From IMG/VR virus record IMGVR_UViG_3300031565_000179: DNA of 35,481 nt. One strand, written 5' to 3'. Position numbers and translations under genes: made by a program. The notes below the pieces were generated by a model. It ran no database searches. It saw nothing but the letters and a program-made list of their open reading frames with translations, and was not told the DNA's origin. The stretch comes from a virus. Below, piece by piece: positions 34,460 through 34,533 of the stretch. The first letter of the stretch is position 1, and each line of letters starts with the position of its first letter.

Positions 34460-34533
34460 CGCGGGTAGGACAACCGGCAAGTCGTCGGCCCCATTAGCCG
34501 AAGGACGGGGTTCAATTCCCCGACCCGCTACCA
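34460..34533 (+). tRNA. tRNA with CAU anticodon, initiator (fMet)-like, CCA encoded
   Basis: Cloverleaf folded by hand:
- Acceptor CGCGGGU/ACCCGCU with a C1xU72 mismatch.
- D stem GAC(A)/(A)GUC.
- Anticodon stem UCGGC/GCCGA with loop CCCAUUA.
- T arm CGGGG-UUCAAUU-CCCCG.
- A73, then CCA.

The architecture is very similar to E. coli tRNA-fMet. Confidence 0.7.

Follow-up and report, generated by a model that had tools for sequence, protein, structure and literature searches.

An initiator-like tRNA gene in a phage genome

We analyzed a 35,481-nucleotide stretch of viral DNA (IMG/VR record IMGVR_UViG_3300031565_000179; hereafter the window), which represents a tailed phage of ~35 kb with nearly all genes on the + strand. 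The subject of this study is a tRNA(CAU) gene at positions 34460–34533 (+) of the window, 74 nt long including a templated CCA. ARAGORN identified it as the sole tRNA of the window, a tRNA-Met(cat) with exactly these ends, and the Rfam tRNA model RF00005 matched positions 34460–34530 with 39.1 bits (gathering threshold 29; E value of 5e-5 for the window). Both results agreed with the sequence and hand fold given in a preliminary description of this DNA, and the gene was called as a tRNA(CAU) above threshold rather than scored as a non-tRNA.

The fold was read from the sequence. In the acceptor stem (CGCGGGU/ACCCGCU), G2:C71 through U7:A66 are paired and C1xU72 is unpaired, the latter being the only pair marked as non-canonical by the Rfam model. 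A8 and G9 are followed by the D arm GACA-ACCGGCA-AGUC (34469–34483, +), which contains neither GAG nor CTC and has three Watson-Crick pairs (G10:C25, A11:U24, C12:G23) and an A13xA22 mismatch. After a single G comes the anticodon arm UCGGC-CCCAUUA-GCCGA (34485–34501, +), with the pairs U27:A43 (34485/34501), C28:G42, G29:C41, G30:C40, and C31:G39. In its loop C32-C33-C34-A35-U36-U37-A38, C33 lies at 34491, the CAU anticodon at 34492–34494, and U37 at 34495. AGGA then leads to the T arm CGGGG-UUCAAUU-CCCCG, and the 3' acceptor strand is followed by A73 and CCA. Among the near-universal tRNA nucleotides, A14, G18-G19, and the T-loop positions are kept, while U8 (A here), U33 (C), and the purine at position 37 (U) are not; the preliminary description had already called A8 and U37 atypical. 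The assignment to the tRNA family is thus based on the covariance-model score, not on the near-universal nucleotides. A thermodynamic fold of the 74 nt alone recovered three of the arms (acceptor, anticodon, and T) and missed the weak D stem, and its stability relative to shuffled sequences was not significant (z = −1.7). Since tRNAs are commonly no more stable than shuffled sequences in such folds, this value was not counted against the call.

The tRNA shows the bacterial initiator hallmarks that had been proposed for it, namely C1xU72, A11:U24, G29:C41, G30:C40, and A73. It is identical to E. coli tRNA-fMet at 53 of 74 positions, compared with 39/74 for the elongator tRNA-Met and 38/74 for tRNA-Ile2 (reference sequences verified against 5,426 genomes). 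The identity features for methionyl-tRNA synthetase, CAU and A73, are present, as are the formyltransferase determinants, which are the lack of a strong 1:72 pair, G2:C71, and C3:G70. According to previous studies, formylation can proceed with any 1:72 arrangement other than a strong pair, in combination with 2:71 and 3:70, C1xA72 being merely the most frequent form (PMC5393177, PMC5389676). In the initiator G:C triplet, G29:C41 and G30:C40 are present and 31:39 is C:G (GC/GC/cg). In E. coli, G30:C40 is the essential one of the three pairs, and the flanking pairs may vary with growth sustained (PMC5389676).

We compared eight tRNA variants from the phage clade to which the window belongs. The acceptor stem, CAU anticodon, A73, and CCA were invariant, and A11:U24 was found in seven of the eight variants. 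Stem pairs were counted from parsed arms, not from the MAFFT alignment. All five pairs of the T stem were kept in 8/8 variants through switches from C:G to A:U or G:C, and compensated changes were also found in the anticodon stem. The conserved identity elements and compensated stems support, at the level of sequence, a working initiator-type tRNA.

Features of other CAU tRNAs were absent. Elongator tRNA-Met has a Watson-Crick 1:72 pair and Y11:R24, where the window tRNA has C1xU72 and A11:U24. tRNA-Ile2 has a paired 1:72 together with C4:G69 and C5:G68, which are determinants for TilS in E. coli, and the window tRNA has an unpaired 1:72, G4:C69, and G5:C68. Initiators of the eukaryotic or archaeal type have A1:U72 and, in eukaryotes, no T54; the window tRNA has C1 and a T loop (UUCAAUU) with T54, and only U72 and C33 are similar. 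In phage tRNA arrays with two or three CAU tRNAs, where only rows with a templated CCA are reliable for comparison, an unpaired 1:72 was found only in the C1xU72 acceptor type, and the companions were paired and had elongator-like GCUC D stems.

The window tRNA belongs to a subfamily, marked by A8-G9 and the GACA/AGUC D arm, of a phage-borne family with CGCGGGU/ACCCGCU, C1xU72, A73, and usually a templated CCA. The exact acceptor stem with the T loop pattern was found on 54 viral contigs, whereas 185,579 cellular genomes yielded the same pattern on only 10 contigs, of which two or more are phage. Members of this acceptor type in other phages usually have U8, a GAGN/NCUC D stem, and a CUCAUAA loop. 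The canonical acceptor type CGCGGGG...CCCCGCAA was present on at least 120 viral contigs, and relatives occurred in 112 cultured-phage records, annotated simply as tRNA-Met. In these collections, phage initiator-type tRNAs are therefore not uncommon, contrary to the preliminary description. In the wider family, 31:39 was G:C in only 13 of 39 sequences, and G39 was family-wide. tRNA-CAU genes of the GACA type (A8-G9, GACA/AGUC) were found on six unrelated viral contigs (L370, L371, L373, L375, L377, L381). An exact search of IMG/VR with the anticodon/T-arm sequence of the window yielded no match.

Several related tRNAs have unusual anticodon loops. The cultured phages D3 of Pseudomonas (L366; AF165214.2, 53398–53473) and BUCT566 (L368) encode an initiator-like tRNA with C1xU72 and the loop CCCAUAA, which has C33, annotated only as tRNA-Met. 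In the preliminary description, C33 was otherwise known from vertebrate cytoplasmic initiators; it is confined neither to eukaryotes nor to phages under a motif constraint, as phage D3 has it beside a GAGA/UCUC D stem. A UUCAUUA loop with U37 was present in 7/39 sequences of the same acceptor type as the window tRNA, all from low-GC (marine) viral contigs (L193, L195, L196, L200, L210, L211, L228). The same CGCGGGU/ACCCGCU-A stem, with C1xU72, was also seen with a GAC anticodon in Val-like tRNAs (L191, from the chromosome of Chryseobacterium sp. 8AT; L201; L219), so this stem combines with an unpaired 1:72 outside the CAU tRNAs as well.

GAG/CTC avoidance and the anticodon arm

The genome-wide avoidance of GAG and CTC invoked in the preliminary description is real and extreme. 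GAG occurred 28 times in the window against ~494 expected, and CTC occurred 14 times against ~424 expected (observed/expected ratio, o/e, ~0.05). Both words were depleted on the coding strand, so the pressure is one on double-stranded DNA, not on mRNA. Other words nearly absent from the window were GATC (0), GATG (1), CATC (5), GCAG (5), CTGC (7), and GGTG (4), and GTGC was also depleted. For GAG and CTC together, the close relatives fetched had o/e values of 0.02–0.13, with 0.22 in L085 and 0.37 in L379. At 57–69% identity of the large terminase the values were 0.09–0.25, and distant terminase relatives had values of ~0.9. The depletion lineage includes L001–L004, L084–L087, L092, L095, and L242–L245, and a syntenic relative, L374, lacks the depletion. 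No known 3-bp-specific restriction system, enzyme, or protospacer adjacent motif matched the GAG/CTC avoidance.

The set of avoided words varied among relatives. In L245 (NCBI JBINOA010003763.1; 21.5 kb examined), GATC was over-represented (344 vs 79 expected), GCAG and GGTG were both at zero, and one encoded protein (746 aa) weakly matched N6/N4 methyltransferases.

The window tRNA has no GAG and no CTC, and among the other avoided words of the genome it contains only GTAG and CTAC; related tRNAs on non-depleted contigs carry 4–8 such words. The D stem had been described as remodeled by this avoidance, which did not hold up for the stem or for A8. The A8-G9-GACA...AGUC arm was also found on the six unrelated GACA-type contigs, where GAG/CTC o/e was 0.78–1.06, and in L374, so the D arm and A8 are traits of the subfamily, not clade-specific remodeling. 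At most, a D arm already without GAG and CTC was convenient for the lineage. We also considered whether GAG/CUC avoidance had been solved independently by each of the three D-arm types, an idea weakened by the GACA arm in non-depleted phages. In the clade variant of L003 (2642–2714), the D arm is shortened to a 4-bp stem and a 4-nt loop with one spacer nucleotide, and the anticodon stem has 6 bp; this variant is called by ARAGORN and is below the Rfam threshold.

The anticodon arm showed a different pattern. L374 is syntenic with the window (small terminase 55%, large terminase 70%, and portal 70% identical) and is not depleted (GAG 100 vs 127 expected; CTC 57 vs 75). At the same locus it carries a tRNA with an identical D arm, the loop CUCAUAA, and C27:G43, which gives GAG at positions 43–45. 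In the clade, the loops are CCCAUAA, CCCAUUA, or UCCAUAR, and 27:43 is U:A. The GAG at 43–45 was not visible to the preliminary description because the E. coli tRNA lacks that site. C33 was found in 6/8 clade variants, compared with 1/39 same-acceptor tRNAs elsewhere and 2/57 canonical-acceptor tRNAs. Among GACA-type tRNAs, the number of GAG and CTC sites per gene was 1–4 in non-depleted contigs and 0–1 in the clade (p = 0.0016, Mann-Whitney), and C33 was present in 5/7 clade variants and 0/7 outside (p = 0.02, Fisher's test). The proposal that U33 was replaced by C through the avoidance is thus borne out in part: C33 is strongly enriched in the depleted clade and L374 has CUC, but C33 also occurs in the unconstrained phage D3. 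U37 was found only in the window within the clade, and the avoided motifs offer no explanation for it. Two alleles, L002 (8832–8905) and L218 (8215–8288), have the anticodon arm GCGUU-CUCAUAA-GUCGC, in which CTC and the avoided word GCAG are kept.

A conserved putative transcription unit and its phage

The tRNA gene lies in a short putative transcription unit. A promoter-like site, TTGACA-17 nt-GACAAT (34374–34402, +), is located within the 3' end of an open reading frame (ORF; 34130–34441), and its transcription start would be ~50 nt upstream of the tRNA. The site has 10/12 consensus matches, and one such site was present, with 0.3 expected from shuffled sequences. The CTTGACA box and the spacing were kept in all clade members, with or without the tRNA, and L374 has TTGACA-N17-TATATT. 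The tRNA is located in the loop of a conserved hairpin, whose 5' arm GGCGG (34455–34459, +) directly precedes it and whose 3' arm CCGCC follows it after the linker AUGA (34534–34542, + for linker and arm); in a precursor, the two arms could lengthen the acceptor stem. The 19-nt box GTTGGCCCGACCGACCCCG (34548–34566, +), which overlaps the 5' arm of the terminator, was invariant or nearly so. Among 18 viral-contig hits, exact or one-indel matches to it were found at 13 clade loci, so that the tRNA locus is recognizable by the box, and its conservation exceeded that of adjacent coding DNA.

An intrinsic terminator (34560–34600, +) ends the unit. It consists of the two-tier stem GACCCCG-UU-GACGG-AUAA-CCGUC-UU-CGGGGUC (34560–34591) followed by UUUUAUUUU. 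A simple terminator scan missed it because of the long two-tier stem, and folding confirmed the strong terminator noted in the preliminary description (z = −3.2; 0/200 shuffles folded as well), with compensatory variants seen in relatives. A sensitive Rfam scan of 34340–34640 found only the tRNA, and no known RNA family covered the rest of the transcript.

About half of the clade carries the tRNA(CAU) exactly in the loop of the GGCGG/CCGCC hairpin, and the other half has an empty allele, in which the hairpin GGCGG-CTTGA-CCGCC lies between the same promoter and terminator. The tRNA is therefore an accessory cassette at a fixed site. Nearest neighbors by flank similarity comprised empty and filled alleles (L001/L002, L175/L179, L086/L179, L178/L218). 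L175 and L179, whose downstream flanks are identical, differ by C-TTGA vs C[GCGGGU...ACCA]TTGA, and the extra segment therefore corresponds, give or take one base, to the complete mature tRNA with its CCA. The allele ends of both L175/L179 and L001/L002 match the mature tRNA (C1 or G2 to the templated CCA), which fits either insertion of a mature-tRNA copy or site-specific cassette exchange. Since the tRNA is also present at the same site in L374, at 70% large terminase identity, the presence/absence polymorphism is an old one, and recombination among related phages probably keeps it in place.

With or without the tRNA, the unit of promoter, 5' hairpin, GGCGG/CCGCC hairpin, 19-nt box, and terminator was kept beyond the neighboring coding DNA. 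It was located at 34374–34600 in the window, 3270–3378 in L001, ~9830–9990 in L085, ~14830–14990 in L086, and ~11240–11440 in L242. The capsid-assembly genes follow shortly downstream of this conserved unit, which may represent a regulated leader or a small RNA, an arrangement that we take to be comparable to lambda PR'-tR'.

The genes around the unit are those of a tailed phage. Upstream are the small terminase (28641–29393), the large terminase (30118–31614), a Mu-like portal (31705–33126), an ORF of 275 aa (33126–33953), and small ORFs followed by the tRNA unit, up to 34600. The window also encodes a protease/scaffold (49–1287), the major capsid protein (1764–2726), an ORF of 1401 aa that by its size and position is probably the tape measure (8128–12333), a replication initiator (22629–23486), a helicase loader (23483–24070), RuvC (24067–24558), and a radical SAM protein (25001–25780). 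No integrase, DNA methyltransferase, or defense-system protein was detected in the window ORFs scanned (Pfam and PHROGs for the integrase). The large terminase has thousands of homologues, of which ~40 are 70–86% identical and located on 30–50 kb contigs. Terminase-based locus scans returned mostly distant relatives (≤46% identity) with no tRNA at the site, patterns of the flanks and of the tRNA being more productive, and a DNA similarity search of positions 30000–35481 against cultured phages gave no match. Host assignment by the labels of metagenome-assembled genomes was conflicting (Dehalococcoidales for L188, Omnitrophota for P0036), and no host is claimed.

Several relatives carry additional domains in this region. 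In L242 (9685–10998), a protein 54% identical to that of the window ORF 33126–33953 carries at its N terminus an additional ~175-aa domain of the 2H phosphoesterase/2'-5' RNA ligase (LigT) type. This domain, fused to a head-associated protein, could serve in RNA (tRNA) repair or as an Acb1-like anti-CBASS cyclic-nucleotide phosphodiesterase, and we did not accept it as evidence on the tRNA. Another homologue of this post-portal ORF, in L244 (13243–14853), has an intein-splicing domain. Several homologues of the terminase (P0027, P0030, P0084, P0089, P0095, P0111, and P0120) are 750–825 aa long and have intein or LAGLIDADG domains.

Interpretation and comparison with known systems

These results are, in our judgment, best explained by an accessory tRNA of the initiator type that is produced as part of a short RNA running from promoter to terminator, with GGCGG/CCGCC flanking the acceptor stem, and whose gene has been held clear of GAG and CTC at the expense of U33; we consider this explanation reasonably likely. 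From its own sigma-70-like promoter to the strong terminator, the unit would be transcribed as an RNA of ~190 nt within the head-gene region, and the tRNA, held in the loop of the GGCGG/CCGCC hairpin, would be released by RNase P and 3' processing. Judging from its identity elements, we infer that the phage tRNA is aminoacylated, formylated, and used in initiation. Charging by the host methionyl-tRNA synthetase would depend on CAU and A73, formylation on the unpaired 1:72, G2:C71, and C3:G70, and use in the P site on G29:C41 and G30:C40, so that the tRNA may supplement or replace the host tRNA-fMet during infection. In a lineage that appears to purge GAG and CTC from both DNA strands, the tRNA gene could not keep the CUC (32–34) and GAG (43–45) of its L374 orthologue. 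C33 and U27:A43 would be carried in place of the L374-type CUC and GAG, the D arm needing no remodeling, and a DNA-level word constraint would therefore have overridden the near-universal U33.

Several observations weigh against this explanation. As a tRNA, the gene scores low (39 bits, compared with 57–64 bits in Rfam for related phage tRNAs); A8, A13xA22, C33, and U37 all deviate from near-universal features, and only two of the three G:C pairs have the canonical orientation. A U33C tRNA was not accepted by the E. coli t6A machinery (PMC8887486). The gene is dispensable, the site being empty in ten distinct clade members. The L002 and L218 alleles keep CUC and GCAG and have a U30xU40 mismatch; the constraint may thus not be absolute, or some alleles may be decaying or recombinant. 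A change to U32 would be sufficient to eliminate CTC, yet L188 and L379 combine U32 with C33, and phage D3, L257, L338, and L241 have C33 in the absence of a GAG/CTC constraint. The p values given above overstate independence because the clade sequences are related. The differences had been said to lie exactly where GAG or CTC would be, which is correct for positions 27, 43, and 33 but was overstated: between the window and L374 alone, these are 3 of ~11 differences that hit GAG/CTC sites, with a chance probability of ~0.13. The direction of change can be read from these sequences either as loss in the clade or as regain in L374.

Some of these observations would be expected if the tRNA were a counter-defense element whose anticodon stem-loop (C33, U37, and G39 instead of C39) resists a host nuclease of tRNA-fMet, such as a VapC-type PIN toxin or another anticodon nuclease. 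Motif avoidance would then be coincidental or secondary, although the two explanations may coexist. Enteric VapCs cleave tRNA-fMet between A38 and C39 (PMC4105405), where the window tRNA has A38-G39, and anticodon-loop-altered phage tRNAs have been proposed to evade such nucleases (PMC10264068). The low frequency of G:C at 31:39 in the wider family (13/39), the recurrence of C33 in initiator-type tRNAs of phages without motif constraint (D3, L257, L338), its presence in L188 and L379 where U32 already removes CTC, and the interleaving of empty and filled alleles among near-identical flanks, which is typical of accessory counter-defense genes, all fit this idea. However, G39 is family-wide, not clade-specific. 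C33 is found in ~3% of tRNAs outside the depleted clade and in 6/8 inside, and thus tracks the DNA constraint, not membership in the tRNA family, while the 27:43 change removes GAG but lies off the known cleavage site. We regard counter-defense as the main rival explanation, though a rather unlikely one. A decaying relic, or a non-translational element that serves as an RNase P processing or stability signal in the conserved leader, would account for the low Rfam scores (39 bits in the window, below threshold in L003), the off-consensus A8, C33, U37, and A13xA22, the broken anticodon stem of L002 and L218, the truncated D arm of L003, and the loss of the tRNA from about half of the clade while promoter, hairpin, box, and terminator stay. 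It is quite improbable given that no variation is seen in the acceptor stem, CAU, A73, and CCA and that the T and anticodon stems are kept by compensatory changes. The A8, GACA/AGUC subfamily also persists in unrelated phages, which argues that such oddities are tolerated in working tRNAs, and conservation of CAU, G29:C41, and G30:C40 would be superfluous in a simple RNase P signal.

Two other roles fit the data poorly. An elongator tRNA-Met, or a tRNA-Ile2 with CAU modified to lysidine, could supplement AUG or AUA decoding; CAU is common to all three classes, and ARAGORN and GenBank label such genes only as tRNA-Met. We consider this very unlikely, as an unpaired 1:72 disfavors EF-Tu binding (PMC5393177). 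The tRNA also has A11:U24, compared with Y11:R24 in both E. coli references (elongator Met and Ile2), its identity to these two is lower than to tRNA-fMet, and in arrays those roles are filled by CAU tRNAs with a paired 1:72. At 4:69 and 5:68 the window tRNA has G:C, where E. coli TilS uses C:G. As tRNA genes are integration sites of many temperate phages, the gene might be an attachment-site copy of a host tRNA gene. This idea is barely credible, since the tRNA is full-length and lies between a promoter and a terminator of its own, the ORFs scanned with Pfam or PHROGs yielded no integrase, and the acceptor stem is nearly absent from the cellular genomes (10 contigs, some phage). A bolder scenario is that a phage-specific "orthogonal" initiator class, with C1xU72 and an altered anticodon stem-loop, sustains initiation under attack on tRNA-fMet, that a cassette with mature-tRNA ends passes from one related phage to another and lands in the hairpin loop of a conserved late leader, and that the U33C and 27:43 recoding reflects a host system that reads the 3-bp GAG/CTC on double-stranded DNA and overrides a universal nucleotide. 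We give this scenario little credence as a whole.

Under the explanation of an accessory initiator-type tRNA kept free of GAG and CTC, the locus is a natural experiment in which a lineage-wide ban on a 3-bp word meets conserved tRNA nucleotides. Its outcome suggests that a bacterial-type initiator tRNA tolerates C33 and here also U37, and the cultured phage D3 points in the same direction. The tRNA is a compact candidate reporter for the cause of GAG/CTC avoidance, which is itself the more surprising phenomenon. The C1xU72 family is widespread and mostly phage-borne, and its role, whether extra initiation capacity or evasion of tRNA-fMet nucleases, is testable through cultured members. Phage tRNAs, phage initiator-type tRNAs, and the avoidance of short words were already known. 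New here are a strand-symmetric 3-bp avoidance that reaches a structural RNA gene at a near-universal position and a precise presence/absence polymorphism of a tRNA within a hairpin loop, and the phage-borne C1xU72 family, including its GACA subfamily, seems to have gone unremarked so far.

Compared with E. coli tRNA-fMet (metZWV/metY), the window tRNA shares CAU, the unpaired 1:72, G2:C71 through G6:C67, A73, A11:U24, the T loop UUCAAnU, and the contexts G26-U27-C28-G29-G30 and C40-C41-G42-A43-A44-G45-G46. It differs in U72 (not A72), U7:A66, A8 (not U8), GACA/AGUC with A13xA22, C31:G39 (not G31:C39), C33 (not U33), and U37 (not A37). The tRNA-Met of Pseudomonas phage D3 and D3-like phages is likewise phage-encoded and has C1xU72, A73-CCA, A11:U24, G29:C41, G30:C40, and C33. 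Unlike the window tRNA, it has U8, a GAGA/UCUC D stem, G31:C39 and thus all three G:C pairs, and A37 in its CCCAUAA loop; it contains GAG and CUC itself and scores 57 bits in Rfam. The GACA-type tRNAs of the six unrelated contigs and of L374 share the overall architecture and have the same A8-G9-GACA-AnnGGnA-AGUC D arm, and L374 additionally shares the locus, promoter, and GGCGG context. These GACA-type genes outside the clade, including L374, differ in having U33 (CUCAUAA or UUCAUAA) and, in 5/7, GAG at 43–45, and their genomes are not depleted.

As in the cytoplasmic initiator of multicellular eukaryotes, C33 lies in a loop of the CCCAUAA type (PMC8887486). U72 is also shared. The window tRNA begins with C1 and has the T loop and the formylation determinants of bacteria, whereas eukaryotic initiators have a paired A1:U72 and no T54. 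In a broader sense, the gene resembles cases of restriction-site (short-word) avoidance in phages and phage tRNAs with mutated anticodon loops (PMC10264068), in which features of a gene are shaped by host defense and not by its own function. Unlike known short-word avoidance, the avoidance described here matches no known enzyme, concerns a word of only 3 bp on both strands, and reaches a near-universal position of a structural RNA gene.

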